From Sinorhizobium meliloti (GTDB taxonomy: Bacteria > Pseudomonadota > Alphaproteobacteria > Rhizobiales > Rhizobiaceae), in the NCBI RefSeq assembly GCF_017876815.1, contig NZ_JAGIOS010000001.1, positions 2,970,001 through 3,002,000 on the forward strand: DNA of 32,000 nt, given 5' to 3'. Each line of letters starts with the position of its first letter. Positions within the stretch are counted from its first letter, which is position 1. Below, piece by piece: positions 9,918-31,081 of the stretch. The notes under the pieces were generated by a model, which searched no databases, was not told the origin of the DNA, and saw nothing but the letters and a program-made list of their open reading frames with translations. Made by a program: the position numbers and the translations under genes.

Positions 9918-10922
9918 CTACCGCGCCATCTGCAGCGTCAGCTTTCGCTCGGCGCGTTCCTGTTGCGGCGAGCGGTTGTAAAGCTCGCGGTAACACTTCG
10001 AAAAATGCGAAGCGGAAACGAAGCCGCAGGCGACGGCGACTTCCACAACCGGCATGGACGACTGGATAAGCAGGTGCCGGGCGCGGTCGAGGCGGATTTC
10101 CAGATAATAGCGGGCAGGCGATCTGCCCATCTCCTGGCGGAAAAGCCGCTCGATCTGACGGCGAGACAGGTCCGCGCTTTCTGCGATCTCCAGTAGCGAC
10201 AGCGGCTCGGAGAGGTTGCTCTCCATCAGTTCGATGATCGACAGGACCTTGGCGTTCTGGACGCCGAGACGCGCTCTCAGCGGCAGCCGCTGGCGGTCGT
10301 GCGGCCCGCGCACCCGATCGGTGAGCGCTTGTTCGCAGACGCGGTTGACGAGGTTCTCGCCGAAATCCTGATCGATCAGGTTCAGCATCATGTCGAGCGA
10401 GGCGGTGCCGCCGGCGCACGTATAGATGTTGCCGTCGATCTCGTAGAGGTCCGCATATACATCGGCCTGGGGGAAGCTCTCGGAGAAGCCCGGCAGGTTT
10501 TCCCAATGGATCGCGCAGCGCTTGCCCGTGAGCAGGCCCGCCGAGGCGAGCACATGGGCGCCCGTACAGAGACTGCCGACGGCGATGCCGCGGTTATAGG
10601 CTTCGCGCAGCCATGCATTCACCGACTTGTTCTGGAAGTCCTCGACATAGACGCCCGAACAGACCAGCACCATGGATGGGCGGCTTTCTCCGCCGAGATA
10701 TTTGCGTTCGTCGGCGAGCGAGGTGTTGACTTCGAGCGCAATGCCCGCCGACGAATAGACCTTTTGGCCGTCGGTCGAGGCGAGACGCCACGTGTAGGCT
10801 TCGTAACCGAGCATCCGGTTGGCGATGCGGAGCGTCTCGATCGCCGCCGAAAAGGGCAGCATCGAAAAGTTTGGCACCAGAAAGAAGACGAGCGAACGCT
10901 TCTTCGTCAGCGGTTTGTGCAT
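9918..10922 (-). CDS. GlxA-family transcriptional regulator (DJ-1/PfpI-like domain + AraC HTH), GbdR/CdhR-like architecture
   Basis: From ATG 10922 (RBS GGGAGG) the translation reads MHKPLTKKRSLVFFLVPNFSMLPFSAAIETLRIANR. The C-terminal AraC HTH reads LSLLEIAESADLSRRQIERLFRQEMGRSPARYY...VACGFVSASHFSKCYRELY. Confidence 0.9.
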   Translation of the reverse strand: MHKPLTKKRSLVFFLVPNFSMLPFSAAIETLRIANRMLGYEAYTWRLASTDGQKVYSSAGIALEVNTSLADERKYLGGESRPSMVLVCSGVYVEDFQNKSVNAWLREAYNRGIAVGSLCTGAHVLASAGLLTGKRCAIHWENLPGFSESFPQADVYADLYEIDGNIYTCAGGTASLDMMLNLIDQDFGENLVNRVCEQALTDRVRGPHDRQRLPLRARLGVQNAKVLSIIELMESNLSEPLSLLEIAESADLSRRQIERLFRQEMGRSPARYYLEIRLDRARHLLIQSSMPVVEVAVACGFVSASHFSKCYRELYNRSPQQERAERKLTLQMAR

Positions 10923-11066
10923 GAAACCTCCCAGGCTAAAGCACGTTGCATAGATCGAATTCATGCGACGCACTTCAGGTCGTCGCTTTCGTGCATGTCG
11001 TCAGCCCCAAACCGCTGCGCACTTTTGGCGACATGCATTAAGGCTCGCATATTCGTCGCTTGGAAT

Positions 11067-12662: not shown

Positions 12663-12675
12663 GAGGCAGGTCGAT

Positions 12676-16143: not shown

Positions 16144-16217
16144 TTGCGCAAGCGGCTTCCCGGGACCGCCAAACGACCCGAGAAGCAAACGTCGCGCTGA
16201 AATTGGGGTGGACGATG

Positions 16218-16250
16218 ATAAGTTATGGCTTATAATAAGCTATGACTTAT
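16218..16250. promoter_or_regulatory. 33-bp imperfect palindrome overlapping the ArsR-family start codon (probable autoregulatory operator)
   Basis: The sequence is ataagttatggcttat-a-ataagctatgacttat, with 14 of 16 arm positions complementary. Confidence 0.5.
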
Positions 16251-16571: not shown

Positions 16572-16602
16572 CTTTATCGCGATCTCACGGGAGGAGGACC
16601 TC

Positions 16603-17073
16603 ATGAACATGATCGAGCCGGCACCGGTCCGCAAGTCGGTTACGGTGCGTACATCGCCGCAGCAGGCGTTCGACGTTTTCGTCAGCGGAATGGGGACGTG
16701 GTGGATCAAGGGCCACAGCCTCACGCAGTCCGGCCAAAAGACGGTTGTGGTGGAGGCCGTCGCGGGTGGCCGCTGGTACGAGATCGGCAACGCGGGAGAG
16801 GAGTGCGAGTGGGGGCGTGTCATCGCTTGCGACCGACCGAACCGAGTTCTCTTCGACTGGCAGCTCAACGCCGATTTCGACTACGATCCCGGCCTGCATA
16901 CCGAAGTGGAGGTCCTGTTCGAGGCAAATGGGGAAGGTGGCACAACCGTCATTCTCGAGCACCGCCATCTTGAAAAATACGGCGTGAAGGCCAAGGAAAT
17001 GCGCGGCATTTTCGATTCGGAGAATGGCTGGGGCGGCCTGTTGGCGTCCTATATGGAGAAGGCAGCAGCTTGA
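16603..17073 (+). CDS. SRPBCC (AHSA1/START-like) family protein
   Basis: RBS GGAGGAGGA, 156 aa. The translation reads VTVRTSPQQAFDVFVSGMGTWW...GGRWYEI...WGRVIACDRPNRVLFDWQ. The ArsR+SRPBCC pairing is typical. Confidence 0.8.
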   Translation: MNMIEPAPVRKSVTVRTSPQQAFDVFVSGMGTWWIKGHSLTQSGQKTVVVEAVAGGRWYEIGNAGEECEWGRVIACDRPNRVLFDWQLNADFDYDPGLHTEVEVLFEANGEGGTTVILEHRHLEKYGVKAKEMRGIFDSENGWGGLLASYMEKAAA

Positions 17074-17150
17074 GTTCACGCGGGTTCCCGGACGCGTAGG
17101 GATGAGGAAATCAAGCAGGCCGCGGCGGGTATCCCGAAGCTCAACAGACC

Positions 17151-17813
17151 TTAATCCGGCTGCGAAATGCTGGCCATTCTGGCCAGCCGTTGGAATGCCG
17201 TCGGAGCCATGGGCTCTGCTTCGAGCCGCTTGCGGATGAGCGCGGCGCATTCGTCAGGCGTCATCATGGACGTGTCGACTGCGAGATCGTAGATACCGGG
17301 GCGATGCACCTCTCGCTGCCATGCGAGCACCTGGCGCGGAACAGGCTCCGCCTCGCTACCGGTGAGGTAACCGCCTTCGCGACCGGGCTGGCCGCGATTG
17401 CGTCGCTCCATTATCGTCTCGACCGGACACCGCACCCCGACGAAGAGGACGGGAAGGCCGAGAAGCCGGCGAGCGCAGTCGGGAAGGATATGGCGCGGTT
17501 CGCCATAGGCGTCGTGATGCCCGACATCGGCGACAACGTTCAGACCCAGCCGGCTATGCGCGGCAACGGACTCGTAGAGGGCAGCGTAGAAGAGAGGTAC
17601 GAGCGCTTCGATTTCAGGTAATTCACCGCCGGGCCGCAACCCGATACCCGGCAGGCAGCGGCGAGGCATTACTCGCTCCATGTAGGCGTCGACGCCAAGG
17701 TTCATCCATGGTCCGTCGAATGTCTCCTGGATCGCCTCGGCTATGCTCGACTTGCCGGATCGTGGCGCCCCGTTGAGGATGACGATCCGTCCAGGATTGC
17801 AGCCGCTTTTCAT
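17151..17813 (-). CDS. Chloramphenicol phosphotransferase-like P-loop kinase family protein
   Basis: Walker A motif in IVILNGAPRSGKSSIA. The overall CPT-like pattern follows (WMNLGVDAY..., VGVRCP). RBS AAGGAG. Confidence 0.75.
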   Translation of the reverse strand: MKSGCNPGRIVILNGAPRSGKSSIAEAIQETFDGPWMNLGVDAYMERVMPRRCLPGIGLRPGGELPEIEALVPLFYAALYESVAAHSRLGLNVVADVGHHDAYGEPRHILPDCARRLLGLPVLFVGVRCPVETIMERRNRGQPGREGGYLTGSEAEPVPRQVLAWQREVHRPGIYDLAVDTSMMTPDECAALIRKRLEAEPMAPTAFQRLARMASISQPD

Positions 17814-17867
17814 CGGATCTCCTTGGCCGTCGACACAAGGTTCGGCTATTCGAAGCGGTGAGACGGA

Positions 17868-19919
17868 CTACTCCCTGCTGCGTCGCCGCCTGCGGCCGCT
17901 TCCTTCGCCACCGTCATCGGTCAATGACTTGCGCGCCGGCAGGGTAACCACTTCGGCGAGTTTCGGGAAGGCATCCACCTTGTTCGGCATCGCCATGGCG
18001 TTGACGAAATGCTCCTGAAACTTCGATTCAAGCGCCGTCTCTATCTTCTCGATTTTCCTCACTGTTTGCTCGATCTCGCGGCGGTGACCGCGATTGAGGA
18101 GCGCCATCAGCGCGCCTGTGCCGGCGGCATTGCCGACCGCCTTCACCTCAGTGAGGTCGCAATCGGGGATCAGGCCGAGCACCATGGCATATTTCGGATC
18201 GATGAACGAGCCGAAGGCACCGGCAAAACGGATCGTGTCGACGTGATCGACACCTTGTTTCTCCATGAGCAGCTTGATGCCGGCATAAAGCGCCGACTTG
18301 GCGAGCTGGATCGCTCTGATATCGTTCTGCGTCACGGTGATGCGCTGTTCGCCTTCGTGGAGCAGATAGGAGAAGGTGCGGCCGTTCGGGATGATGCGCG
18401 GGCTCTTCGCGACCATAGCGCCGTCGACGACGCCGTCCTGCGAAATGATGCCAGTGAGGTACATCTCCGCGACGACTTCGATGATCGCCGAGCCACAGAT
18501 TCCTGTGACACCGACTGCTGCAGCTGCCTCGGCGAAGCCTTCTTCATTCGACCATTTGTCGACGCCGATTACCCGGAACCGCGGCTCCAGCGTCTCGGGA
18601 TCGATGCGGACGCGCTCGATCGCTCCGGGTGCGGCTCGTTGACCGGAGGAGATCTCTGCCCCCTCGAAGGCCGGGCCGGTCGGCGATGAGGCGGCGACGA
18701 CGCGCTCCCTGTTGCCGAGCACGATCTCGGCATTGGTGCCGACATCGACGAGCAGCATCATCTTGTCCTGACGATGCGGCCCTTCGGAAAGCGTCGCACC
18801 CGCGGCGTCCGCTCCGACATGGCCGGCGATGCAGGGGAGCATATAAAGGCGCGCGCCGCGATTGACCTCTATGTCGATTTCGTGCGCCCAATATTGCAAG
18901 GCGCCGGATACGGCCAGCGCGAATGGCGCCTGTCCGAGCTCCGTCGGATCGATCCCGAGGAACAGGTGATGCATGATCGGATTGGCGACGACGACCATGT
19001 CGAGAATGTCGTGGCGGTCGACCTCGCCCTCAGCGCAGACCTTGCCGATCAGGCCGTTCAACGCTTCGCGGACCGCCTTGGTCATCGCCTCGCGGCCATC
19101 CGGATTCATCATCACATAGGAGACGCGGCTCATCAGATCCTCACCGAAGCGGATCTGCGGATTCGATGTGCCGGAGGAGGCCACGATGCGTCCGGAGAGC
19201 AGCGATACGAGATGCATCGCGATCGTCGTCGAGCCAATGTCGCAGGCGACGCCATAGGCCTCGTTCTTCAATCCCGGCCAGAGAGCGACAATGAAGGGAC
19301 GGGAGGAGTCCATGTCGCGGTGGATCGCCGCAGTCACGGCCCAATTGCCCTTGCGCAATATGCCTTGGACCTGGGGGATCAGGTGGGGGGCGATCAGAAG
19401 GTCCTTCCAACCCCAGTCCTTTTCCAGGACGGCCTTCATCCGATCGAGATCGCCGAGCGGCTTATGCATGTCCGGTTCGTCGATCTCGACATAGCACAGT
19501 TGCACCGCCGCGTTGCGCTCGATCACACGATCGCTTGCGGCCTTGCGCACCACCTGCGCGTTGATGACGGTGTCCTGCGGGACGTCGATGACGAGATCGC
19601 CGAGAATCTGGGACGAACAGGACAGCCGCCGCCCGTCCGGCAATTCGCGCACGCTCGCGTAACGCTGCTCCTTGGGACCGATCGGCGAGATATGGTCGCT
19701 GGACGAAACGATCTTGTGCTTGGCGAAATTGCCTTCCTGGACGGAAACCTGGCAACGTCCGCAGGTGGCGCGGCCGCCACAGACGCTTTCGACATAGACC
19801 CCGAGCGAACGTGCGGCGTCGAGGATCGGCGTACCGACGGGGAAACGGCCGCGTTTGCCGGAGGGCATGAAGAGCACCAGCGGATCGTTCTTTTCGTCCT
19901 TCGAGGGCACGTTCAACAT
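17868..19919 (-). CDS. Corrinoid reductive activase (RACE/AcsV-like): N-terminal [2Fe-2S] ferredoxin + ASKHA ATPase (DUF4445)
   Basis: From ATG 19919 the plant-type ferredoxin motif CGGRATCGRCQV...SC is present. ASKHA phosphate motifs follow (GVACDIGSTTIAMHL, LLVDVGTNAEIVLG). Confidence 0.85.
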   Translation of the reverse strand: MLNVPSKDEKNDPLVLFMPSGKRGRFPVGTPILDAARSLGVYVESVCGGRATCGRCQVSVQEGNFAKHKIVSSSDHISPIGPKEQRYASVRELPDGRRLSCSSQILGDLVIDVPQDTVINAQVVRKAASDRVIERNAAVQLCYVEIDEPDMHKPLGDLDRMKAVLEKDWGWKDLLIAPHLIPQVQGILRKGNWAVTAAIHRDMDSSRPFIVALWPGLKNEAYGVACDIGSTTIAMHLVSLLSGRIVASSGTSNPQIRFGEDLMSRVSYVMMNPDGREAMTKAVREALNGLIGKVCAEGEVDRHDILDMVVVANPIMHHLFLGIDPTELGQAPFALAVSGALQYWAHEIDIEVNRGARLYMLPCIAGHVGADAAGATLSEGPHRQDKMMLLVDVGTNAEIVLGNRERVVAASSPTGPAFEGAEISSGQRAAPGAIERVRIDPETLEPRFRVIGVDKWSNEEGFAEAAAAVGVTGICGSAIIEVVAEMYLTGIISQDGVVDGAMVAKSPRIIPNGRTFSYLLHEGEQRITVTQNDIRAIQLAKSALYAGIKLLMEKQGVDHVDTIRFAGAFGSFIDPKYAMVLGLIPDCDLTEVKAVGNAAGTGALMALLNRGHRREIEQTVRKIEKIETALESKFQEHFVNAMAMPNKVDAFPKLAEVVTLPARKSLTDDGGEGSGRRRRRSRE

Positions 19920-19938
19920 TTTCTGTCTCGCCAGCAGT

Positions 19939-20277
19939 TTATTTCGCGAGCCGGCGGGCGTTTGCCCGCACGCGCTTGGCATAGGGCCGAACTGCGGCCG
20001 CCGCTATCCGGTTGTGCGCGGCGGCAGAGCCCGGCTTTCCGGCGGCAAGTGCCGCGGCCGCACTCATTCCTTCCTTCACCAGGGCGACATTGGCGGCGAC
20101 GACGCTTTCGGCGACGGCCGCCATTTTTTCAGTCACCATCCGGCTTGCCTCGACATAGTCGGTTGCCGAGCCGGTGATAGCGGCGACGGCCATGGCCTGC
20201 GTACGCGCGGCGATGACCATCGGAGCCTGAAACCAGAGTGCCGCCAGGTCGCTGGCGAAGGAGTGGTGCTTGGCCAT
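19939..20277 (-). CDS. Ala-rich hypothetical protein, tightly coupled to the upstream methyltransferase gene
   Basis: 112 aa. Its start lies 2 nt after the stop of the upstream gene (TAAAAATG). No domain recognised with confidence. Confidence 0.5.
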   Translation of the reverse strand: MAKHHSFASDLAALWFQAPMVIAARTQAMAVAAITGSATDYVEASRMVTEKMAAVAESVVAANVALVKEGMSAAAALAAGKPGSAAAHNRIAAAAVRPYAKRVRANARRLAK

Positions 20278-20279
20278 TT

Positions 20280-21242
20280 TTACTCCGCCCGTGCGACGCC
20301 GGCGCGCGCCGCGCGTCCGCCGCGCCGCCCGCCGGCACCCGCCGGTGCTGCCGCAGCGGCGACGGCATGGCCGCCTTCGGCCGGCTTGTGGTCGCGATAG
20401 GTCATGATCCAGTTTGTGCAGTTCGGGTCGGTGCCGTTAAGCACGTTTGCGGCTCGAACCGCCTCCATCTCCTGCGGACGGCAGGGGTTCATGATGGCCG
20501 AGGTCATACCGGCGCCGATAACCATGGGGATGAAGCCGGCGTTGATGCCGTGGCGGTGCGGCAGGCCGAAGGAGATGTTGGAGAGGCCGCAGGTGGTGTT
20601 GACCTTGAGCTCTTCGCGAAGGCGGCGAAGCAGCGCGAAGACCTGCTGGCCCGCAGATCCCAGTGCGCCGATGGGCATGACGAGCGGATCGACGACGATA
20701 TCGTGCGGCTTGATGCCGTAATCGGCGGCGCGCTCGACGATCTTCTTGGCGACCGCGAAGCGGACGTCCGGGTCCATCGAAATGCCGGTCTCGTCATTGG
20801 AGATCGCCACCACCGGAACGTCGTATTTCTTGCAGAGCGGCAGGATCGCTTCGAGCTTTTCCTCCTCGCCGGTCACCGAATTGACGAGCGGGCGGCCCTT
20901 TGCAACGCGCAGGCCGGCTTCGATGGCGGCGGTAACCGAACTGTCGATCGACAGCGGCACGTCGACGAGGCCCTGAACGATCTCCAGCGTCTTGACGAGG
21001 AGCGGCGGCTCGGTCTCGTTCGGGTCGACGGCCGTCACGCCCGCATTGACGTCGAGCATCGTCGCGCCGGCGGCAACCTGCTCCAGCGCATCCTTGATCA
21101 CGGTGTCGAAGTTGCCCTCGATCATCTCGGCGGCGAGCTTCTTACGGCCGGTCGGATTGATGCGTTCGCCGATGACGCAGAAGGGCTGGTCGAAGCCGAT
21201 GATGATCTCGCGTGTGGCGGAGGCGACGATGGTGCGGGTCAT
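20280..21242 (-). CDS. Pterin-binding methyltransferase (methyltetrahydrofolate:corrinoid methyltransferase, AcsE/MtrH/CmuB-like)
   Basis: The translation reads FCVIGERINPTGRKKLAAEMIEGNFDTVIKDALEQVAAGATMLDVNAG...LSIDSS...LVNSVTGEE...TCGLSNISFGLP. Confidence 0.85.
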   Translation of the reverse strand: MTRTIVASATREIIIGFDQPFCVIGERINPTGRKKLAAEMIEGNFDTVIKDALEQVAAGATMLDVNAGVTAVDPNETEPPLLVKTLEIVQGLVDVPLSIDSSVTAAIEAGLRVAKGRPLVNSVTGEEEKLEAILPLCKKYDVPVVAISNDETGISMDPDVRFAVAKKIVERAADYGIKPHDIVVDPLVMPIGALGSAGQQVFALLRRLREELKVNTTCGLSNISFGLPHRHGINAGFIPMVIGAGMTSAIMNPCRPQEMEAVRAANVLNGTDPNCTNWIMTYRDHKPAEGGHAVAAAAAPAGAGGRRGGRAARAGVARAE

Positions 21243-21362
21243 ATAAGATCCTCTGAACCTTGAGCGTTGGCCTATGTAATAGGGCCGTTCTGTGTTTGTA
21301 AGGCGCTGGACGAGCAGGAGCGCCGGTTATCCTCTGCTAAAGCCGCCGATCACGGCTTTGTC

Positions 21363-22454
21363 TCAATGCGGGTGGTGCGCGGCGGCCTCGGCCATCTGCT
21401 GCTGATTTTCTTCTTTGCCTTCGCGGATATGTTCCAGCCGCTCGGCAACCAGCGCGTCGGTCGGCGCGGCTTCGCGCGTCCAGGGTTTACGGCCCCTCAG
21501 GACACCTGATTCATGGACGATTTCGGCAACGTATTCCTCCTGGCGATAGGCCATGACGTGGACGCCGGAGACGCCCTCGATCTCCTTCACCTCGTTCATG
21601 ATGTCGATGCAGAGTTGCTTACCTTCCTTTTTCTGGTCCTGGGCGCCCTCGAGCCGTTTGATGATGCTGTCCGGAATGTGGATTCCCGGAACATTGGAGC
21701 GGATCCAGCGGGCAGTCTTGGCGGATGCCATCGGCCCGACGCCCACCAGGATGTAGCACCTCTCGTGAAGACCGAGATCGCGCACCTTCTTCATGTATTC
21801 GCGAAACATCGGAACGTCGAAGCAATACTGGCTCTGCACGAACTGTGCGCCGGCCTCGATCTTCTTGGCGAGGCGATAGGGGCGGAAATCATAGGGCGGA
21901 GCGAAGGGGTTGATCGCTGCTCCGAGGAATACCTGGGGCGGCGTCGTCAGCTTGCGGCCCGAAAGGAACTTGGAATTGTCGCGCATGATGCGCACCGTCT
22001 CGAGCAGGGACATGCAGTCGAGATCGAAAACCGGCTTGGCCCCGGGCTGATCGCCCGCCTGCACGCCGTCGCCGGTGAGGCACATGATGTTCTGGACGCC
22101 CATGGCCGAGGCGCCGAGCACGTCCCCCTGAATCGCGATGCGGTTCTTGTCGCGGCAGGCGATCTGCATGATCGGCGCATAGCCCATGCGCGTCAGGAGC
22201 GCGCAGATGCCGACGGATGACATGTGGCAGTTGGCGCCCGAAGCGTCGACCGCGTTGATGCCGTCCACCCATCCGTCGAAGATTGCCGCGCGCTCGTAGA
22301 CGTCCTGGGGATCGGCGCTGTCCGGCGGATTGAGCTCGGCCGTCACTGCGAACTCGCCGCGGCGCAGCACGCGCTCCAACCGCCCGCGCGAGGAATGGCC
22401 GGGCAGGGGGTCGAGCGGAGCGCCTGGATCGTGGGGATTGATGTCCGGGCTCAT
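21363..22454 (-). CDS. metF: Methylenetetrahydrofolate reductase (MetF-like catalytic subunit)
   Basis: The MTHFR TIM-barrel pattern is present: FAVTAELNPPDS...INAVDASGANCHMSS...IMQIACRDKNRIAIQGDVLGA...IMCLTGD. Confidence 0.85.
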   Translation of the reverse strand: MSPDINPHDPGAPLDPLPGHSSRGRLERVLRRGEFAVTAELNPPDSADPQDVYERAAIFDGWVDGINAVDASGANCHMSSVGICALLTRMGYAPIMQIACRDKNRIAIQGDVLGASAMGVQNIMCLTGDGVQAGDQPGAKPVFDLDCMSLLETVRIMRDNSKFLSGRKLTTPPQVFLGAAINPFAPPYDFRPYRLAKKIEAGAQFVQSQYCFDVPMFREYMKKVRDLGLHERCYILVGVGPMASAKTARWIRSNVPGIHIPDSIIKRLEGAQDQKKEGKQLCIDIMNEVKEIEGVSGVHVMAYRQEEYVAEIVHESGVLRGRKPWTREAAPTDALVAERLEHIREGKEENQQQMAEAAAHHPH

Positions 22455-23038
22455 TGCTGCGGGCCTTCCTTCTTCGCCGCTTCGCGGGCGGCCGCGGCCT
22501 CGGCCGTTACCCGCAACCAGGACGAGGTTTCGCGCAGCGACTGGTTGACCGGCTTCTGCACGTTCATGATCGCATCACCCTTCACCATGTTCTGCGAGCC
22601 CTTCCACGCCTGCACCCAGACACAGGGCATGTCCGGCTCGACTTCGCAATTGCCGTTTGCGCGTACGCCGCCGCAGGGCCCGTTCCTGAGCTGCTTCGGA
22701 CAGTTCATGGGGCACGACATGCCGGTTGAGGACAGCGCGCACTGCCCGCACATGCGACAGTCGAAGAGGAAGCCCTTGACGTGGCGCTCGACGAATGTCA
22801 CGGGCCTTTCAACCCGGTTGTAGCCAATTGCGTTCCACAGAGGATGGAGAAGCAGGAACATGTCGGCGAAACGGTTGTAGAACCACTCGAGGAAACGCGA
22901 ATTGCGTACGGCCCAGAGACGCACCGTGTATTTGTGGCGCGAGCGGCGGCTGGGCGACACGCCCTGGGGTGTATAGGCGCCCGTCGCCGCCTTCCTGGCG
23001 GACTGGGCGTTGCCGGTCACGACCTTCGGGTCAGGCAT
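22451..23038 (-). CDS. MTHFR C-terminal-domain (MetV-like) Cys-rich protein
   Basis: From ATG 23038 (RBS GGAGG). The Cys-rich core reads CRMCGQCALSSTGMSCPMNCPKQLRNGPCGGVRANGNCEV. An ATGA overlap joins it to metF. Confidence 0.8.
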   Translation of the reverse strand: MPDPKVVTGNAQSARKAATGAYTPQGVSPSRRSRHKYTVRLWAVRNSRFLEWFYNRFADMFLLLHPLWNAIGYNRVERPVTFVERHVKGFLFDCRMCGQCALSSTGMSCPMNCPKQLRNGPCGGVRANGNCEVEPDMPCVWVQAWKGSQNMVKGDAIMNVQKPVNQSLRETSSWLRVTAEAAAAREAAKKEGPQQ

Positions 23039-23333
23039 TGTCCCGGCCTCCGGCCTTGATGAGTGCGACGAGGCGCTCCCGGTCAAAGGCGGCTTCCAAT
23101 TCGGCCGCCGCCCTGTCGGCTTCCGCCTCGAGGTCGTCGGAGACTGGAACGGGATCGGCCTTGCGCCATTCGGCAAGGTAGTCGTCGGTCTCGGCGGCGC
23201 CGGTGCGCATGGCGCACATGTCGATCGCCTCGGTGAAGCGCAGCGAGAGCTCGCGCTTGGCGGTCTTGCGGCCCTGCTTGATGATGACTTGCGCGGGGAT
23301 ATCGCGCCAGTAGACGATAATGCGGTCTGCCAT
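23031..23333 (-). CDS. 'Virulence factor'-family small protein (PF13769-like), first gene of the THF operon
   Basis: 100 aa beginning MADRIIVYWRDIPAQVIIKQGRKTAKRELSLRF. An 8-nt overlap joins it to the downstream MetV-like gene. Confidence 0.65.
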   Translation of the reverse strand: MADRIIVYWRDIPAQVIIKQGRKTAKRELSLRFTEAIDMCAMRTGAAETDDYLAEWRKADPVPVSDDLEAEADRAAAELEAAFDRERLVALIKAGGRDNA

Positions 23334-23639
23334 CGGATTCCTGTTCTCCTATAAGGGCGACAATGCGCATGTCCACGCGCCGTGGCTCACCTTGCCACGA
23401 CGTCCGATATGTCCAAAAACGACGCTGCACAATCACGCATCCGAACCTTGCGCTCGCGGAGCGCGCCGCTTGCGCCGGCGCGGCGAAATGCCTGCCTTAT
23501 CGGCGGCGACAAAGGACCGGGAACACGCGTGCACCGGCGCCTCGGATGGTCCTTAAGAATATCATGAATCTTGCATTCACTGCGCGTTCACCTGGCCGGC
23601 GGCAAAAGCTCTGACCTATTCGAACAGATAGGTGTGGAG

Positions 23640-24107
23640 ATGAAGAAGATTGGGATCCTGTTCCTCGCGGCTGTGACGGCTTTCACCGGCTATGCGCCTG
23701 CGCAAGCCATGCCCGTCCCAACCGTTCCGGTGTCGCAGACGATCGACGTGCAGATGGTCGACCACCGCGGCTGGCATGGTCACCGGCATCGCCCGCGGCA
23801 CGGCTGGCGCCGGCACGGCCATCGACACTGCTGGTATAACGGGCATCGCGGCTACAACTATCGCCGCCACGGCTACCGCCGGCACAGCGACGGCTGGTGG
23901 TATCCACTGGGAGCCTTCGGTGCCGGTATGATCATCGGCGGCGCCATCGCCCAGCCGCGTTACGCAGAGCCACGCTATGCGGCGCCGGGAATGCCTGCCA
24001 GCCACGTCAACTGGTGCTATGACCGCTACCGCTCGTACCGCGCTGCGGACAATTCCTACCAGCCCTATGGCGGCCCAAGACAGCAGTGCTATTCGCCTTA
24101 CTACTGA
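23640..24107 (+). CDS. BA14K-family secreted protein with a His/Arg-rich central region
   Basis: Signal peptide MKKIGILFLAAVTAFTGYAPAQA. The C-terminal BA14K motif reads HVNWCYDRYRSYRAADNSYQPYGGPRQQCYSPY. Confidence 0.8.
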   Translation: MKKIGILFLAAVTAFTGYAPAQAMPVPTVPVSQTIDVQMVDHRGWHGHRHRPRHGWRRHGHRHCWYNGHRGYNYRRHGYRRHSDGWWYPLGAFGAGMIIGGAIAQPRYAEPRYAAPGMPASHVNWCYDRYRSYRAADNSYQPYGGPRQQCYSPYY

Positions 24108-24120
24108 GGTCGTCGAGCAT

Positions 24121-24148
24121 TGTCCCTCCGGCAACGCACGGAGGGACA
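24121..24148. terminator. 10-bp-stem hairpin tgtccctccg-gcaacgca-cggagggaca between convergent genes
   Basis: Perfect inverted repeat, followed by a T-rich run (cccttctttcat). Confidence 0.55.
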
Positions 24149-24199
24149 GCCGGCCCTTCTTTCATCGGACGATGACTTCAGATCCGACCGAAGATCCGC

Positions 24200-24373
24200 T
24201 CAGTAGCCGGAGCTGCCGCCGCCGGAACCGCCCATGCTGCCGCTACCGGCGCCTTCGCCGGAGCCGCCGCTTTGTTGAGGGCTGTTGCTGTTCCGGGCCG
24301 ACTGGCTGCTCATGCAGCCTGCCATCGTCAAAAGGGCGAGCGCGGCTGCGACGATCGATGATCTGCCGGTCAT
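24200..24373 (-). CDS. 57-aa Gly/Ser-rich putative lipoprotein (below the ORF-track size cut-off)
   Basis: Hand translation gives MTGRSSIVAAALALLTMAGCMSSQSARNSNSPQQSGGSGEGAGSGSMGGSGGGSSGY. RBS GGAGAA is 5 nt upstream. Lipobox-like LTMAGC. Confidence 0.55.
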   Translation of the reverse strand: MTGRSSIVAAALALLTMAGCMSSQSARNSNSPQQSGGSGEGAGSGSMGGSGGGSSGY

Positions 24374-24517
24374 GACGTTCTCCGATCACCGGATTTGACA
24401 TGAGGAATATCTAATATTCTCTCATCTGTCGGCTAAAGACAAGATTCCCACCACGCTTGATTTCTCGCAGGCATGCATCATCTTTTCTTGGATTGCCGGG
24501 CTGTCTCCGAGGGTGTC

Positions 24518-24664
24518 ATGTCGAAGACCGTATTTGCAGTTCTAATCCTGATCTTCGCTTCGTCCTGCGCCAACACGGCACGGGGATTCAGGGAAGACGG
24601 AACGCAAACTGGCCATGCCGTCGACCGGGCGACCCATCGGGTCTTGAGCGCGGGGGCGCAGTAG
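24518..24664 (+). CDS. Entericidin A/B-family lipoprotein
   Basis: From the internal ATG at 24518 (RBS GAGGG) the translation reads MSKTVFAVLILIFASSCANTARGFREDGTQTGHAV. It resembles EcnA/EcnB (C-NT-x-RG-x-G-x-D). Confidence 0.75.
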   Translation: MSKTVFAVLILIFASSCANTARGFREDGTQTGHAVDRATHRVLSAGAQ

Positions 24665-24681
24665 CAGGCAGGTCCCTCTGT

Positions 24682-25491
24682 CTACCACCTGCCGTGCCGC
24701 AGGCCATTCCAGAACCAAGTCCAGACCGGGGGATGGTACCACTGCCGCGACGGGGCCGCGATGGCGATCGGGCGCAGTTTCCCGGCAAGGGCGTCCTCGA
24801 CCGCACGGATGGCGATGTCGGTTGAGGCGGCCGTCTGGAGAAGGGGGTAGGTGTGGATCGTGTCGGCGCGGCGCGGCGTCTGCCGCGATTGATAGAGGAT
24901 GCCGCCGGTGTCGACGCCTTCGTCGACGAGATGGACGGTCGCGCCGAAATTCTCGGGATCGTTGTTGGCCAGCGCCCAGTAGCCTCCCATCAAGCCGCGA
25001 TATTGCGGGTTGATGCCGGCATGGAAATTCAGAATCGGACAATTGACGGCAGCAAGCGTTTCCGGCTTCAACATGCGGCAACTGATTAGGAAGAGGACGG
25101 CGGGTTTCAGTAGCTGAAGCATTGCATGGCCGTCCGCGTCGTTGATCGAGTCAACGCGGTGGACGGGCACCGTCCGGTTGGGCGCGGCGGACGCATCATT
25201 CTCGCGAAGAATCTCGGCTGCCCGACGCCGGGTGAAGCGCTTGCCGATGCGGGAGACGAACATCGTCGCAAGTTGCCCGAGTGCCATTACCCATCCGAGT
25301 TTGCGCGCACGCCGCATGACGAAGAGCGCCTTTGATTCCGGCTCCTCCTGCAAAATTGCAACATTCGTGAAGCGCGCAGCCAATGCGTTGATCATGATGT
25401 TCGCATTGTCGCCTCCGGCGGTCACCACGACGATGCGTCCCTTGTGCTCGGCGCTCGACAGCGCCCCTTTTTCAGATTTCACGTTACACAT
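24682..25491 (-). CDS. Formyltransferase-family protein (THF-binding fold), atypical N-terminal region
   Basis: The formyl_trans_N motifs ILNFHAGINPQYRGLMG and VHLVDEGVDTGGIL are present. The start is uncertain: ATG 25491 has no clear RBS, and upstream in-frame starts exist up to 25680. Confidence 0.75.
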   Translation of the reverse strand: MCNVKSEKGALSSAEHKGRIVVVTAGGDNANIMINALAARFTNVAILQEEPESKALFVMRRARKLGWVMALGQLATMFVSRIGKRFTRRRAAEILRENDASAAPNRTVPVHRVDSINDADGHAMLQLLKPAVLFLISCRMLKPETLAAVNCPILNFHAGINPQYRGLMGGYWALANNDPENFGATVHLVDEGVDTGGILYQSRQTPRRADTIHTYPLLQTAASTDIAIRAVEDALAGKLRPIAIAAPSRQWYHPPVWTWFWNGLRHGRW

Positions 25492-25676
25492 CAGCGGATC
25501 GCGACAAGAATTTGCGCCAGATGGGATTTGAGGTGCGCTGCGCGGCAGGTCAGCGCAGGAAATATGCCGTCGATACGTTAGTACAGCCTTAAGCTGTGCC
25601 CTGCAAACGATCCCGAAGGATCGCGGGGCCATCGCACCGCCGACGAGGCGTGAGTGCCGGGACCGGAGAGAGCGGA

Positions 25677-26297
25677 TCAAACCTCGATCAGCGATGTCGT
25701 AAGATCGCCATAGCCGGTATAACGGTACTCATATTCGAGCCCGAGAGTAACGGCGGCGCGCCGGGCCTTTTCCTGCAACGCGGCGTCCTCCTGCTGGGAG
25801 AGATAGACGAGCTTGCGGTAGTGGCCGAAATACATGTCGCGCAGTTCAGGGTGCCGGTCGAGGCCGAGCGGCTCGATGACGAAGGCTTCGAACTGCCGGG
25901 CAAGGAAATCCGTCAGGAAGAAAGCTGTGATGTCATCGTCCCAGCGGGCTGCGAAGTCCGCGTTTCCGGCGAAGAACGAGTAGCAATGCGGACCCGGGAT
26001 GCGCGTCACCCCTTCCTCTTCGCAGAGTCGGTCGATAAGCCCGCCGGTGCCGCAATCGGCATAGGCGATGAAGATGCGCTCGAAACCGTTGGCGCGCGCC
26101 CGGGTGATAGCCTCACGCAGGCCCGGAGTGATCTTCTCCGGCGTGTTGTGCCAGATGGCCGGCAGACAGTTGAGCTCGATGTGATCAAGCCCGTTGGCCG
26201 CGCAGACGGCAAGAATTTCGCGCGCGATCGCGCCGCAACCAATGACATGAACTTTCTTCGGTTGTGCACGTTCTCTTGCCGACGTTGCGTTTTCCAT
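25677..26297 (-). CDS. DUF1638 domain-containing protein
   Basis: From ATG 26297 the translation reads KKVHVIGCGAIAREI...LPAIWHNTPEKI...FIAYADCGTGG...IPGPHCYSFF. This matches the DUF1638 pattern seen next to corrinoid methyltransferase genes. Confidence 0.75.
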   Translation of the reverse strand: MENATSARERAQPKKVHVIGCGAIAREILAVCAANGLDHIELNCLPAIWHNTPEKITPGLREAITRARANGFERIFIAYADCGTGGLIDRLCEEEGVTRIPGPHCYSFFAGNADFAARWDDDITAFFLTDFLARQFEAFVIEPLGLDRHPELRDMYFGHYRKLVYLSQQEDAALQEKARRAAVTLGLEYEYRYTGYGDLTTSLIEV

Positions 26298-26336
26298 CTT
26301 TATTCCGCCTTGCATCAACACAAAGGAATCACGGTC

Positions 26337-26495
26337 ATGACGACAAAATCCATCGCGACCATCGGAGCCGTTCTGATAGCGCTGGCAGCCCTGAGTTCCT
26401 GCGCAAATACGATCCGCGGCGCAGGACAGGATACTGCAAACGCAGTCAACGCGACACAGGGAGCCGGCCAACGGGTCGCCAAGGCCGCCAACTGA
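26337..26495 (+). CDS. Entericidin A/B-family lipoprotein (second paralogue)
   Basis: RBS AAGGAA. The translation is MTTKSIATIGAVLIALAALSSCANTIRGAGQDTANAVNATQGAGQRVAKAAN. Confidence 0.75.
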   Translation: MTTKSIATIGAVLIALAALSSCANTIRGAGQDTANAVNATQGAGQRVAKAAN

Positions 26496-26526
26496 CGGCA
26501 CCCGGTAAGTGCTCTTTCCGAAAAAC

Positions 26527-26568
26527 AAAAAGCCGGCTGCTCGTTTCACACGGGCAGCCGGCTTTTTT
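26527..26568. terminator. Strong bidirectional rho-independent terminator (14-bp stem with flanking A and T tracts)
   Basis: The stem is aaaaagccggctgc-(13 nt)-gcagccggcttttt(t). It lies between the entericidin stop (26495) and the corrinoid protein stop (26583). Confidence 0.8.
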
Positions 26569-26582
26569 CATGTCAGATCGTC

Positions 26583-27281
<699 letters not shown>

Positions 27282-27804
27282 AGTTGGGTTCCTCGGTTCC
27301 TGGCACAGTCATTTCGCACGGGTGGCACGAGAGATGGCACAATCCGGACGCGTTGCCCAATCCTTAGCGGGCTACACCTAAAAATCTCTTGTTGAAAGCG
27401 ACGTCGCATATGATGAAAAACGACGGCGCCCCGCGTAAATGCTCCCATGCGACAGCGGTAGCGCATTATTCCGCGGTTCGGAATCTGCCGCCTGCAAAAT
27501 TATGCAGCACTTCAAGGCGTTAGAGTGGCGCTTGCGCGGTCCCGATCTGAAGCAGCGAAAGACGCACGCTCGACGCACTGCAATGGGAGCGACCGCAGAC
27601 CGAGTGTCTAAGATGCGCCAGCCGTTGGCGCATTAAGACCCGTACCGGTCCGGCGCCTTGGTAGCATTAGGCTAAATCGACTACCGGATGCATATGCCCG
27701 CCGCTGGATTTAGCCTCGCGAAAGGGGTATGCGCCCACCCATCAAAGTGTTGCGGCGTTCATCGCGCATGATGCGCGGAGCACCGCGGGAAGAGGAATGA
27801 GCGA

Positions 27805-29379
27805 ATGAGCGACGTTACAGAACAAGGTGCGGCCGAAGGCGGCGGACGCCGCGCGCGTGGTGAGGGGCGGGGAGCGGCAGCGCGTCGCGCTTCCCGCACC
27901 GGCGGTGGCCCGGGACCGTCTCTGCCCTATATCCAACGCAGGATTCGCGAATACGAAGTTCTTGACGAGGAAGGGCTGCAGCTCATCGAACGCAACGCCG
28001 ACGTCGTTCTCGAAGAGATCGGCATCGAGTTTCGCGACGATGCCGAAGCGCTCGATCTGTGGAAGGCCGCTGGTGCCGACGTGCGCGGTCAACGCGTGCA
28101 TTTCCCCAAGGGACTTTGCCGCGAGCTCTTGAAGACGGCGCCGAAGGACTTTACCTGGCACGCGCGCAACCCGGAGCGCAACGCTCAGATCGGCGGCAAG
28201 GCGACCGTCTTCGCGCCGGTTTACGGCCCGCCCTTCGTGCGCGATCTCGACGGCAACCGCCGCTATGCGACGATCGAGGATTTCCGCAACTTCGTGAAGC
28301 TCGCCTATATGGCGCCGTCGATGCACTCATCGGGCGGCACGGTTTGCGAGCCGGTCGATATCGCCGTCAACAAGCGCCACCTCGATATGGTTTATAGCCA
28401 TATCCGTTATTCCGACAAACCCTTCATGGGGTCGGTCACCGCGCCCGAGCGCGCCGAAGACACGGTCGCAATGGCGAAGATCCTTTTCGGCGACGATTTC
28501 GTCGAGAACAATGCGGTGACGTTGAACCTCATCAACGCCAACTCGCCGCTGGTCTTCGACGAGACGATGCTCGGTGCCGCGAAGGTCTACGCCCGCCATA
28601 ACCAGGCTTGCGTCGTTTCGCCCTTCATCCTGTCGGGCGCGATGAGCCCAGTCACGGTCGCCGGCACACTGACGCAGATCCTCGCCGAAGTGCTGGCAGG
28701 CGCGGCCTTTACCCAGCTCATCCGCAAGGGCGCGCCGGTGCTGTTCGGCACCTTCGCCGCGTCGATTTCGATGCAGTCGGGCGCGCCGACCTTCGGCACG
28801 CCGGAGCCGTCGCTCGTCTCCTACGGCGCTGCTCAGCTTGCTCGCCGCCTCGGCCTGCCGTTCCGTACCGGCGGTTCGCTCTGCGGCTCGAAGGTTCCGG
28901 ATGCGCAGGCCGCGCATGAATCGGCAAATACGCTGAACATGACGCTGCTTGCCGGCACCAATTTCGTGCTGCATGCGGCCGGCTGGCTCGAGGGCGGTCT
29001 CGTCTCATCCTACGAGAAGTTCATGATCGACCAGGATCAGCTCGGCATGATGCAGAAGATGGCCGAGGGCGTGGACCTTTCCGAAGACGCGCAGGCGCTC
29101 GACGCCATCCGCGAAGTCGGCCCGGGCAGCCACTATCTCGGCTGTGCACATACGCAGGCGAACTTCCAGAGCGCCTTCTATCGCTCGCCGCTCGCCGACA
29201 ACAACTCCTTCGAGCAGTGGGAGATCGAGGGCGAAAAGCGGATCGAACAGCGCGCCAACGCGCTCGCCCGCTCGTGGCTCGAACATTATGAGGCGCCCTA
29301 TCTCGATCCGGCGATCGACGAGGCGCTGAAGGAATTCATCGCGAAGCGCAAGGACTCGATGCCCGACGCCTTCACCTGA
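27805..29379 (+). CDS. MttB-superfamily (trimethylamine methyltransferase family) protein, non-pyrrolysine type; substrate:corrinoid methyltransferase
   Basis: Uninterrupted 524-aa ORF with no in-frame TAG. The N-terminal pattern is typical of the family (YEVLDEEGLQLIERNADVVLEEIGIEFRDDAEALDLWKAAGADV) and the length fits. It is divergent from the corrinoid protein gene. Confidence 0.85.
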   Translation: MSDVTEQGAAEGGGRRARGEGRGAAARRASRTGGGPGPSLPYIQRRIREYEVLDEEGLQLIERNADVVLEEIGIEFRDDAEALDLWKAAGADVRGQRVHFPKGLCRELLKTAPKDFTWHARNPERNAQIGGKATVFAPVYGPPFVRDLDGNRRYATIEDFRNFVKLAYMAPSMHSSGGTVCEPVDIAVNKRHLDMVYSHIRYSDKPFMGSVTAPERAEDTVAMAKILFGDDFVENNAVTLNLINANSPLVFDETMLGAAKVYARHNQACVVSPFILSGAMSPVTVAGTLTQILAEVLAGAAFTQLIRKGAPVLFGTFAASISMQSGAPTFGTPEPSLVSYGAAQLARRLGLPFRTGGSLCGSKVPDAQAAHESANTLNMTLLAGTNFVLHAAGWLEGGLVSSYEKFMIDQDQLGMMQKMAEGVDLSEDAQALDAIREVGPGSHYLGCAHTQANFQSAFYRSPLADNNSFEQWEIEGEKRIEQRANALARSWLEHYEAPYLDPAIDEALKEFIAKRKDSMPDAFT

Positions 29380-29486
29380 AAGGCTCCCGAGCGAGCCAGG
29401 GAGCAAGGCGGCGCGGCGCAGGTGGCCGATATGATACAGAAAGAGGTCTGGCGCCCGCATTACGAAACTCAAGGGCCGAAACCGAA

Positions 29487-30191
29487 ATGACGGCTCCTTA
29501 CGCATCGGAAAGCGATGTGCTTGAAACCATCCGTGCGGCGCTTGCGCCGCACGGTCTTTTTTTGCGCGGAACCATCAATTTCGCGCCGGGCGAGGCGGGA
29601 CCAACGCTCGAAGGCGGCAAGCCCGCAGCGTGCGTGGTGCTGATCGGCAATGTCGGCGGCTCGGTCTGGGAGCCTTTCCGCCGGTGGCGCGAAGGCGAAC
29701 CCGACGGCGGCGGTGCGGAGCCGCTCGACAACTGGTCGAAACAGGTCATCCGCCCGGCGGCTGCGGCAGCAGGCGCCTCGGCGTATTTTCCGTCCGATCC
29801 CCCTTGGCAGCCCTTCCAGCAATGGGCAATGCGTGCCGAAGGGCTGAAGCCGTCGCCGCTCGGCATCCTCATTCATCCGCTCTACGGTCTATGGCACGGC
29901 TATCGCGGCGCGCTTGCGTTCGATCGAGCCATGCCGGTGACGGGCGAGCCGGCGGGTGGCCACCCCTGCGAAACCTGTGTTGGAAGGCCCTGCCTTTCCA
30001 CCTGCCCGGCGGATGCTTTGGCAGGCGCTACATTCGATATCGGGCGCTGCCGCGCGCATCTGAGAACCGGGGAAGGGGTGGCCGGCTGCCTTGCTCACGG
30101 CTGCCTGTCGCGCGATGCCTGTCCGGTTGGGCGCGACTATCGCTATCCGGTGGGGCAGTTGCGTTTCCATATGGCGGCGATCGAGTTTTAA
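29487..30191 (+). CDS. Ferredoxin-like Cys-rich protein (QueG/reductive-dehalogenase-related [4Fe-4S] C-terminal region)
   Basis: 234 aa. C-terminal Cys motifs are CETCVGRPCLSTCP and C..HL..G....C...GC.SRDACPVG. It starts 107 nt downstream of mttB on the same strand. Confidence 0.55.
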   Translation: MTAPYASESDVLETIRAALAPHGLFLRGTINFAPGEAGPTLEGGKPAACVVLIGNVGGSVWEPFRRWREGEPDGGGAEPLDNWSKQVIRPAAAAAGASAYFPSDPPWQPFQQWAMRAEGLKPSPLGILIHPLYGLWHGYRGALAFDRAMPVTGEPAGGHPCETCVGRPCLSTCPADALAGATFDIGRCRAHLRTGEGVAGCLAHGCLSRDACPVGRDYRYPVGQLRFHMAAIEF

Positions 30192-30264
30192 TCAGAGCGC
30201 GCCCACATAAATCCGCTGCAATCCATGCGATGCTACGTCGTATGATTCCCTCCGGGTCTGTTCG

Positions 30265-31017
30265 ATGCCGCTGTTTACAAGAGCCTTCATCGCCGGCGCC
30301 GCCCTTCTATCCGCCGGTCTCGCTACACCCGCGTTCGGTGCCTGCCGCGATGTTCGCCACCTCGGCGAAACCTACCTCGCCTGCAGCTTCGACCCGGCGA
30401 CGAGCGACATACGACTCTACAACAAGGACCAGGCGGGCGTGCCGTTCAGGTCCTTCAGAGCGCTGTCGCTCGAACTTCGTCGTCGCGAACAGTATCTCGT
30501 CTTCGCAATGAACGGCGGCATGTACCACGAGGACCTCGCTCCGGTCGGGCTGCATGTGGAGGAGGGCGCGGAGCAGGCGCCGCTCAATACAAATCCGGGT
30601 TGGGGCAACTTTCACATGCTGCCGAACGGCGTCTTTTATGTCGGCGACGGCAAGGCCGGGGTCATGGCTGCGGAGGCCTATCGCCTTGCCGGCATCGAGC
30701 CGCGTTTCGCGACGCAATCCGGTCCGATGCTCGTCATCGACGGTGCGCTGCATCCCCGTTTCCTGCCGGATAGCGACAGCCTCAAGACCCGCAACGGCGT
30801 CGGGGTGACGCCCAATGGCCAGGTGGTCTTCGCCGTGTCGAAACGGCCGGTGCGCTTTCACGATTTCGCGACCTTGTTTCGCGACGCGCTGGATTGCCCC
30901 AATGCGCTCTTTCTGGATGGCACGATCTCGAGCCTTTATGCGCCGGAGATCAATCGGCACGACCGGCTGTTTCCGCTCGGCCCGATCATCGCTGTCGTCG
31001 CGAAGTTTCCGCGCTGA
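30265..31017 (+). CDS. Phosphodiester glycosidase-family (DUF2233/NAGPA-like) secreted protein
   Basis: A signal peptide is present. The translation also contains FAMNGGMY, NFHMLPNGVF, QSGPMLVIDG, RNGVGV and ALFLDGTISS. Confidence 0.75.
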   Translation: MPLFTRAFIAGAALLSAGLATPAFGACRDVRHLGETYLACSFDPATSDIRLYNKDQAGVPFRSFRALSLELRRREQYLVFAMNGGMYHEDLAPVGLHVEEGAEQAPLNTNPGWGNFHMLPNGVFYVGDGKAGVMAAEAYRLAGIEPRFATQSGPMLVIDGALHPRFLPDSDSLKTRNGVGVTPNGQVVFAVSKRPVRFHDFATLFRDALDCPNALFLDGTISSLYAPEINRHDRLFPLGPIIAVVAKFPR

Positions 31018-31081
31018 CTTGCGATCGGATGTATTATAAGTCTAATATTGACAAAATATACAAATCCCGTCAGATGCCTGC

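Follow-up and report, generated by a model that had tools for sequence, protein, structure and literature searches.

What is demethylated by a corrinoid-dependent gene set that surrounds an MttB-family methyltransferase gene lacking a pyrrolysine codon in Sinorhizobium meliloti? The gene set lies at positions 17868-29379 of a 32,000-nucleotide stretch of contig NZ_JAGIOS010000001.1 (positions 2,970,001 to 3,002,000 of the forward strand), and this whole stretch is referred to here as the window. The original prediction, made from the letters of the window, had described a set of methyl-transfer genes with an unknown substrate, belonging to an undescribed or poorly characterised system. The present analysis points to another answer. 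It is likely that MtgBCD, an aerobic cobalamin-dependent glycine-betaine demethylase, is encoded at this locus in S. meliloti together with its support genes. For S. meliloti, this assignment is based on homology, residue conservation, synteny, and genomic context. It also draws on results obtained elsewhere, namely the biochemistry and structure of Desulfitobacterium hafniense MtgB (DhMtgB), the genetics of Ruegeria pomeroyi mtgC and mtgD and of Phaeobacter inhibens mtgB1, and fitness data on the RamA-like and DUF1638 genes. Thus, the substrate is not as obscure as had been thought. Nor is the system undescribed: earlier publications already cover it, the way it works, and the presence of the locus in S. 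meliloti, since MtgBCD(E) was published in 2025 with the S. meliloti locus named (PMC12478193), and a preprint, PMC5764234, and the Protein Data Bank (PDB) entry 4YYC, all discussed below, bear on it as well.

The open reading frames (ORFs) of the window were checked, and their products were searched for Pfam and NCBIfam domains. The cluster genes that had been predicted were all found as uninterrupted ORFs at the expected coordinates and with the expected domains. MtgB, MtgC, MtgD, MetF2, the RamA-like activase, and the DUF1638 protein, all six, are encoded inside 17868-29379. The region beyond the window end was read from CP090106.1, which matches the 11.6-kb region along its full length with 99.1% identity; the annotation of CP090106.1 names the same cluster genes as the window ORFs. 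The central 524-amino-acid (aa) protein matches PF06253 with 775 bits (cutoff 25), its residues 22-520 corresponding to profile positions 3-500. In a PDB sequence search, it was found that this protein differs by one residue from 4YYC, deposited as a 'putative trimethylamine methyltransferase'. Thus, the protein has already been crystallised. The next-best PDB match is DhMtgB (2QNE, and 9YCE in the substrate-bound form) with an E-value of 1e-125 and 45% identity over 467 positions, while the pyrrolysine-containing MttB 7XCL gives only 1e-39. The score for TIGR02369 is 286 bits, under the cutoff of 525. There is no in-frame TAG in the mtgB reading frame, and the pyrrolysine residue Pyl334 of 7XCL ('X') is aligned to Leu359 (CTC); DhMtgB also has a Leu at this position. 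These results agree with the predicted membership in the MttB family without an amber codon, and the inspection of the Pyl position that had been proposed revealed a non-pyrrolysine enzyme. By gene counting from bmt (SMc04325), the gene is probably SMc04331.

The glycine-betaine-binding residues of DhMtgB were determined by mutagenesis and with a substrate-bound structure in a 2026 JBC paper (PMC13080624). Y97 and F356 make cation-pi contacts, and R312 and H348 hold the carboxylate (PMC13080624). After correction of the numbering offset (+2) of chain 9YCE, it was revealed that the counterparts of Y97, R312, and H348 are Y140, R354, and H390, so that these three are conserved in S. meliloti MtgB. 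The whole pattern Y-R-H-W-G-G is kept in 85/85 orthologues with at least 75% identity. The three paralogues at 39-43% identity (loci L062, L063, and L085/L086) keep R-H-W-G-G and have Ser or Ala in place of the Tyr, and so does an S. meliloti plasmid copy (locus L093); a truncated pSymB copy (locus L094) retains the Tyr. These patterns suggest that W-x-x-G-G is a trait of the alphaproteobacterial branch, while the Tyr marks the orthologous group among the full-length copies. Scored against DhMtgB, the window protein reaches 402 bits, and the two plasmid-borne copies of S. meliloti reach 320 and 195 bits. Judging from these alignments, the S. meliloti MtgB paralogue at this locus would use glycine betaine.

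The two other S. meliloti paralogues lie in different surroundings. The L093 copy (6935-8470) adjoins genes for a mandelate-racemase-family protein, a betaine ATP-binding cassette (ABC) binding protein, and a GlxA regulator of its own, and this context suggests proline or hydroxyproline betaine as the substrate. The truncated L094 copy (6935-8188) is located beside CaiB-type and acyl-CoA dehydrogenase genes. No corrinoid protein gene was found beside either copy in those contexts, which fits the published idea of several MttB-like enzymes sharing one MtgC. Presumably, the other MttB paralogues of S. meliloti use the same single set of MtgC, MtgD, and activase. As for the window protein itself, its first ~38 codons (27805-27920) encode a Gly/Arg/Ala-rich extension (MSDVTEQGAAEGGGRRARGEGRGAAARRASRTGGGPGP) that is missing from DhMtgB. 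The tblastn alignment of many orthologues starts only at query residues 30-38, and Paracoccus has a similar N-terminal extension.

Is the gene set kept together in other species? The sample consisted of one genome per species and gave 80 loci with an MttB orthologue 82-97% identical to the window protein, belonging to Rhizobiaceae, Phyllobacteriaceae, and relatives. The companions were sought by tblastn with the window proteins in 10-kb flanks, and several of the misses are contig ends. The counts are listed in Table 1 together with the features of the locus. The co-occurrence of the cluster genes is far beyond chance. The gene set is co-conserved in these 80 related species and also in Paracoccus, where P. 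aminovorans has the compact order RACo-MtgD-MetF-MetV-DUF1638-MtgC facing MttB (79.6%)-'ferredoxin' homologue-regulator. The neighbourhood conservation that had been proposed as a check is therefore observed, and the four companions described as recurrent (the PF13769, DUF1638, formyltransferase-family, and ferredoxin-like proteins) do recur. Two other ORFs were rejected as parts of the cluster: a chloramphenicol-phosphotransferase-like (CPT-like) kinase gene, found at 1/80 loci, and a 112-aa phasin-like ORF, found at 12/80.

Table 1. Features of the S. meliloti locus in the window and occurrence of the companions near the MttB orthologue in 80 related loci.
Feature	Position	Strand	Evidence	Loci with the companion
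mtgB, non-pyrrolysine MttB-family methyltransferase	27805..29379	+	PF06253, 775 bits
mtgC, corrinoid (cobalamin) carrier	26583..27281	-	B12-binding_2 + B12-binding domains	78/80, beside mtgB; 85-100% identity
mtgD, methylcorrinoid:tetrahydrofolate methyltransferase	20280..21242	-	Pterin_bind; NF005719, 401 bits (cutoff 259)	73/80
metF2, methylene-tetrahydrofolate reductase (MTHFR)	21363..22454	-	PF02219, E 7e-34	60/80
MetV-like MetF partner (MTHFR_C/DUF5981)	22451..23038	-	PF12225, E 9e-28	61/80
Small PF13769 ('virulence factor') protein	23031..23333	-	PF13769, E 3e-26	75/80, including loci without MetF/MetV detected in the flank
RamA/RACo-like ATP-dependent reductive activase	17868..19919	-	Fer2 + RACo_linker + Raco_middle + RACo_C_ter	67/80
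DUF1638 protein (SMc04333)	25677..26297	-	PF07796, E 7e-26	77/80
Formyltransferase-family protein	24682..25491	-	Formyl_trans_N, E 4e-13	59/80; poor conservation, 41-77% identity
234-aa 'ferredoxin'	29487..30191	+	Eight invariant Cys; CblC/QueG-like fold predicted	73/80
Divergent mtgC/mtgB control region	27282..27804	.	Conserved repeat and palindrome motifs
GlxA-family (DJ-1/PfpI + AraC) GbdR-like regulator	9918..10973	-	GbdR is the best NCBIfam match
52-aa entericidin-like lipoprotein ORF	26337..26495	+	'Entericidin' in the CP090106.1 annotation; tblastn

The partner proteins carry the features expected from their families, and domain searches and synteny agree with the roles originally given to them gene by gene (methyltransferase, corrinoid carrier, methylcorrinoid:tetrahydrofolate methyltransferase, activase, and MetF/MetV). 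The best NCBIfam matches of MtgC are MtgC models, with scores under their cutoffs. The DxHxxG signature that had been ascribed to the corrinoid protein is found as DIHDIG, the His-on motif, at residue 112, and its gene is indeed divergent from mtgB. The activase combines a [2Fe-2S] ferredoxin domain at the N-terminus with an ASKHA ATPase domain. Its four domains are in the RACo/RamA order, RACo_C_ter having an E-value of 5e-90, and Cys47/53/56/101 are present. Since the AcsV and RamA equivalog scores are both under the cutoffs, the activase is a member of the RACo/RamA family but not an equivalog of AcsV or RamA. In the MetV-like protein, the stretch from residue 94 to 139 includes eight Cys. 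Its gene overlaps metF2 by 4 nucleotides (nt), and the PF13769 gene overlaps the start of the MetV gene.

How does this compare with the published work? Mausz et al. (PNAS 2025, PMC12478193) found that R. pomeroyi needs MtgC and MtgD both to grow on glycine betaine and to make methionine, the mtgC and mtgD mutants being methionine auxotrophs. In this bacterium, glycine betaine, choline, and carnitine lead to the induction of two PF06253 proteins, MetF2, RamA, and DUF1638, and MetF2 is the most strongly induced protein on N-osmolytes (PMC12478193). MtgC and MtgD are common to the demethylation and to a split methionine synthase, and MtgD is bidirectional according to the R. pomeroyi genetics; the authors named the system MtgBCD(E) (PMC12478193). 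The same paper reports that in S. meliloti the MtgBCDE ORFs are colocalised with those for the two reactivation modules and with the cob operon. It also reinterprets Barra et al. (2006), the colocalised genes explaining the growth of a bmt mutant on glycine betaine plus methionine (PMC12478193). A December 2025 preprint (10.64898/2025.12.19.695462) describes a P. inhibens mtgB1 gbcAB double mutant with no growth on glycine betaine and lists S. meliloti as having both mtgBCD and gbcAB. Price et al. (2018, PMC5764234) had found that the P. inhibens methionine synthase is split into three genes and that a RamA-like and a DUF1638 gene are also needed. The RamA-like homologue is co-fit with the split methionine synthase, the DUF1638 gene has a mutant phenotype, and both were tied to B12 reactivation; their presence in S. 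meliloti despite a complete MetH was left unexplained (PMC5764234). On the S. meliloti side, a 2025 proteomics paper gives the DUF1638 gene the name SMc04333 and lists the protein in a PhaR/AniA-dependent proteome module (PMC12542648). A literature search for SMc04329-SMc04335 gave no match, and one for '4YYC' gave none either.

On the basis of these data, the following sequence of reactions may be proposed for S. meliloti. The TIM-barrel pocket of MtgB would bind glycine betaine, and Co(I)-MtgC would attack one N-methyl group, giving dimethylglycine and methyl-Co(III)-MtgC. MtgD would hand the methyl group from MtgC to tetrahydrofolate (THF). MetF2 and its MetV-like partner would then convert methyl-THF to methylene-THF in the oxidative direction, feeding one-carbon (C1) oxidation and assimilation. 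The inactive Co(II)-MtgC would be returned to Co(I) by the RamA/RACo-like activase at the cost of ATP, with assistance from the DUF1638 protein. In the reverse run, MtgC and MtgD would methylate homocysteine together with MtgE (Bmt, SMc04325), which would link betaine catabolism to methionine synthesis. The 234-aa CblC/QueG-like Fe-S protein may serve cobalamin handling, as judged from its predicted fold.

The regulation and the wider neighbourhood of the cluster were also analysed. The spacer between mtgC and mtgB is 523 bp in S. meliloti versus about 250-300 bp in most relatives. Two conserved elements are found in it: a direct repeat with copies at 27394 (GAAAGCGACG) and 27416 (AAAAACGACG), and a palindrome, ATGCGCCA-n5-TGGCGCAT, near 27610-27632. 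With 10-mers and up to 1 mismatch allowed, the repeat recurs in up to 63 of 77 orthologous spacers and the palindrome in 39-46 of them. A scan of the whole window with Rfam gave no family at the gathering score, including the cobalamin riboswitch, and a sigma-70 promoter scan gave 0 sites. The number of terminator-like sites (11) showed no enrichment over the expected 11.6, and these sites were not used for defining operons.

A GlxA-family regulator is encoded at 9918-10973. GbdR is its best NCBIfam match (E-value of 9e-106), although the score of 354 bits is under the cutoff of 480. GbdR is the glycine-betaine/choline regulator of Pseudomonas. The S. meliloti regulator is 72.5% identical to the regulator located directly after the cluster in P. 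aminovorans. The same regulator architecture adjoins the cluster in locus L088, and an orthologue of the regulator is found beside RACo in 8 loci. In S. meliloti, ~7 kb of unrelated genes lie between the regulator and the cluster. Thus, I infer that the GbdR-like protein is a candidate betaine-responsive controller of the cluster, as far as sequence similarity and gene order can tell. Between the two, at 11424-12664 (+), genes for a metal-sensing repressor and for Co(II)/Ni(II) efflux (dmeF) are located, so cobalt homeostasis genes adjoin the cobalamin-demanding pathway.

In CP090106.1, bmt/mtgE (SMc04325, PF02574) lies ~3 kb past the window end, not inside the window, and a glycine betaine/proline ABC ATPase gene, cobU/W/N/O, and cobA/cbiB/cobD are found within 40 kb. 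In a metagenomic contig (L085), the cluster is followed by a PF02574 gene of the MtgE type and a DAO-FAO_M-GCV_T gene of the dimethylglycine/sarcosine dehydrogenase type. In Paracoccus, carnitine dehydrogenase genes are located ~10 kb from the cluster. The GbdR-like regulator, bmt/mtgE, the dimethylglycine-dehydrogenase-type gene, and the carnitine genes in the vicinity fit glycine betaine as the substrate.

Several points weigh against this assignment. F356 of DhMtgB is aligned to Gly398 in the S. meliloti protein, while W394, four residues upstream, is aligned to Ile352; the JBC paper calls the four residues of DhMtgB the likely minimum set (PMC13080624). Trp394 may be a stand-in for the aromatic role of F356, as its place in the alignment suggests. 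In R. pomeroyi, mtgB was assigned via proteomics and not by mutation (PMC12478193). S. meliloti also has gbcAB (10.64898/2025.12.19.695462) and MetH (PMC5764234). Expression, mutant, or enzyme data on these genes in S. meliloti were not found in the literature searched. Because the F356 position is not conserved, a modest probability has to be given to another betaine. The same machinery would then act on a different quaternary amine, such as proline betaine (stachydrine), hydroxyproline betaine, carnitine, gamma-butyrobetaine, or choline derivatives, and glycine betaine would be handled by Bmt and/or GbcAB. In addition to the missing F356, it fits such a substrate that R312, and less strictly H348, are common to family members with other acidic quaternary-amine substrates and are not specific for glycine betaine by themselves, and that several MttB paralogues are present per genome, presumably with different substrates. 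On the other hand, the equivalent of Y97 is a feature of the orthologous group that most full-length paralogues no longer have, and none of the S. meliloti paralogues is closer to DhMtgB than the window protein. The L093 paralogue has a better context for proline or hydroxyproline betaine, and the pSymB copy has its CaiB-type and acyl-CoA dehydrogenase neighbours. Furthermore, mtgE, a dimethylglycine-dehydrogenase-type gene, and genes for the conversion of carnitine to betaine occur near the cluster in other taxa. Glycine betaine is therefore preferred over the other amines.

Could the genes serve methionine synthesis rather than catabolism? MtgC, MtgD, the RamA-like protein, and DUF1638 together with Bmt/MtgE would then be primarily a split B12-dependent methionine synthase, and the MttB gene would be an accessory with little catabolic role. 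The P. inhibens genes were first found as methionine-synthesis genes (PMC5764234), and the methionine auxotrophy of the R. pomeroyi mtgC and mtgD mutants (PMC12478193) points in the same direction. This is improbable for S. meliloti, whose MetH is complete and includes a reactivation domain of its own, so that the genes are 'unexplained' under a pure methionine-synthase view (PMC5764234). The MttB gene is the tightest partner of mtgC, with 78 of the 80 loci, and MetF2/MetV for the oxidation of methyl-THF are inside the cluster. Moreover, both roles are compatible in the published model (PMC12478193). The original prediction had also noted a resemblance to the cmu chloromethane pathway. The downstream C1 logic is indeed similar, with a corrinoid protein, a methyl-THF-forming methyltransferase, metF, and a formyl-THF-related gene, and the roseobacter MtgC is reported to be phylogenetically close to the corrinoid domain of CmuA (PMC12478193). 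The resemblance does not extend to the methyl-donor enzyme. Neither a CmuA-type fusion (an MtaA/URO-D-like methyltransferase plus a corrinoid domain) nor CmuB was found among the ORFs scanned (15178-31720), and the PF06253 protein is the only substrate methyltransferase among them. The cmu analogy as a pathway identity was thus rejected on gene content, and a cmu-type pathway for chloromethane or another non-amine methyl donor is hardly conceivable here. The glycine-betaine demethylase MtgBCD remains the likely identity of the locus.

What is the 234-aa 'ferredoxin' encoded downstream of mtgB? This protein looks like an undescribed part of the locus. It is not mentioned in the text of the two MtgBCD papers, and the PF13769 and formyltransferase-family proteins are not discussed there. 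The 234-aa gene lies directly after the MttB orthologue in 73/80 loci, in Paracoccus, and in four of five further contigs, while it is stand-alone in the fifth. The protein gave no Pfam match at the gathering score. There are a faint match to MMACHC (E-value of 0.25, or 0.0027 in a fused relative) and faint matches to QueG and NapG. Eight Cys residues are invariant among 30 homologues: C161, C164, C169, C173, C188, C201, C206, and C212. An AlphaFold2 model has a predicted local distance difference test (pLDDT) score of ~90 at residues 11-110, while the Cys-rich tail is poorly modelled. In a Foldseek search of the PDB with this model, human MMACHC/CblC was the best match (E-value of 3.5e-4, TM 0.54), followed by NpRdhA, QueG, and PceA. 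According to the QueG structure paper, proteins of the QueG, CblC, and RdhA types have a common cobalamin-binding domain. A sequence profile search of the PDB gave ferredoxin-like matches only and did not recover MMACHC; thus, the link to CblC rests on the model. The family comprises ~1,780 clusters at 50% identity (E-values up to 1e-3). Six of the nine longer representatives scanned have an N-terminal XRE-type helix-turn-helix domain, and such fusions hint at a ligand- or redox-sensing module.

I tentatively consider it possible that the 234-aa protein is a so far unrecognised relative, in bacteria, of CblC/MMACHC, which processes B12 in eukaryotes, and that it is built like a miniature QueG or reductive dehalogenase and dedicated to cobalamin handling for MtgC in aerobes. 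On this view, a B12-binding fold would be followed by two [4Fe-4S]-type Cys motifs. The protein may remove the upper ligand of newly made adenosyl- or cyano-cobalamin, reduce or load the cofactor, or sense B12 or the redox state. Since a 2016 paper describes bacteria as being without CblC homologues, a B12-handling role would be of some interest. A strong terminator-like hairpin was found at 29531-29554 (+), 45 nt inside the 234-aa ORF; it has a 10-bp stem with 9 GC pairs and -21 kcal/mol, and is followed by TCTTTTTTTG. Loci of Sinorhizobium, Ensifer, Shinella, and Pararhizobium retain the hairpin, whose inner stem shows compensatory changes, while protein identity drops to ~50%; Mesorhizobium and Aminobacter do not have it. 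Possibly, the hairpin works as an attenuator between mtgB and the gene that follows.

The rest of the cluster is less uniform. The formyltransferase-family protein, which has the stretches NFHAGINPQYRG and HLVDEGVDTGG, is the least conserved member. A DUF4893 gene occupies the formyltransferase slot in L085 and adjoins the formyltransferase gene in L092. The S. meliloti cluster is broken by small unrelated genes, namely a BA14K gene, two entericidin-like ORFs, and one hypothetical gene. By tblastn, the 52-aa entericidin-like ORF between the DUF1638 gene and mtgC was detected in 58 of the related loci, in most of which it occupies this position. In L091, it is located immediately upstream of the 'ferredoxin' homologue that stands alone. 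The second small lipoprotein ORF of this type is located at 24518-24664 (+), on the opposite strand. The rejected 112-aa ORF, at 19939-20277 (-) between the activase gene and mtgD, has a weak match to the phasin PhaP6 (E-value of 9e-12, under the cutoff).

It is likely that this cluster is the 'second' glycine-betaine demethylation route inferred in S. meliloti by Barra et al. (2006), as cited by Mausz et al. (PMC12478193). Through this cluster, the breakdown of betaines, the synthesis of methionine, and the need for B12 are connected in a symbiont of plants, to which betaines are available both in the rhizosphere and inside nodules. The link between betaine, methionine, and B12 is already in print, so the locus does not represent a new kind of system.

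Among the known systems, the aerobic MtgBCD(E) of R. pomeroyi and P. inhibens has the same components, with a PF06253-type MtgB, MtgC, MtgD, MetF2, a RamA-like protein, DUF1638, and MtgE/Bmt nearby, and its hosts are likewise aerobic B12-producing Alphaproteobacteria. However, the genes are scattered in R. pomeroyi and P. inhibens, while they are clustered in S. meliloti; S. meliloti also keeps MetH. The MtgB/MtgC/MtgA system of D. hafniense (DSY3156) shares the Leu at the Pyl position, the residues Y97/R312/H348, a separate corrinoid protein, a THF methyltransferase, and a RamA-type activase. In contrast to S. meliloti, D. hafniense is an anaerobic Firmicute, and its F356 is replaced in the S. 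meliloti protein (Gly398, with Trp394 nearby). The MtgC of the aerobic roseobacter system is phylogenetically distinct from that of the anaerobe (PMC12478193). The split methionine synthase of P. inhibens has homologous corrinoid, pterin-binding, RamA-like, and DUF1638 genes, although the work of Price et al. (2018) was confined to the synthesis of methionine, with the MttB-family partner and a catabolic direction outside its scope. The cmu pathway of Methylobacterium and Hyphomicrobium shares the corrinoid-mediated methyl transfer to THF and the following MetF-type oxidation, while its methyl-donor enzyme is of a different family. The MttB/MttC/RamA system of Methanosarcina (7XCL) belongs to the same PF06253 superfamily and has a TIM-barrel methyltransferase, a corrinoid protein, and an activase. 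Methanosarcina MttB has pyrrolysine, and its system passes the methyl group to coenzyme M, while the S. meliloti protein has Leu359 and a system with THF as the acceptor.

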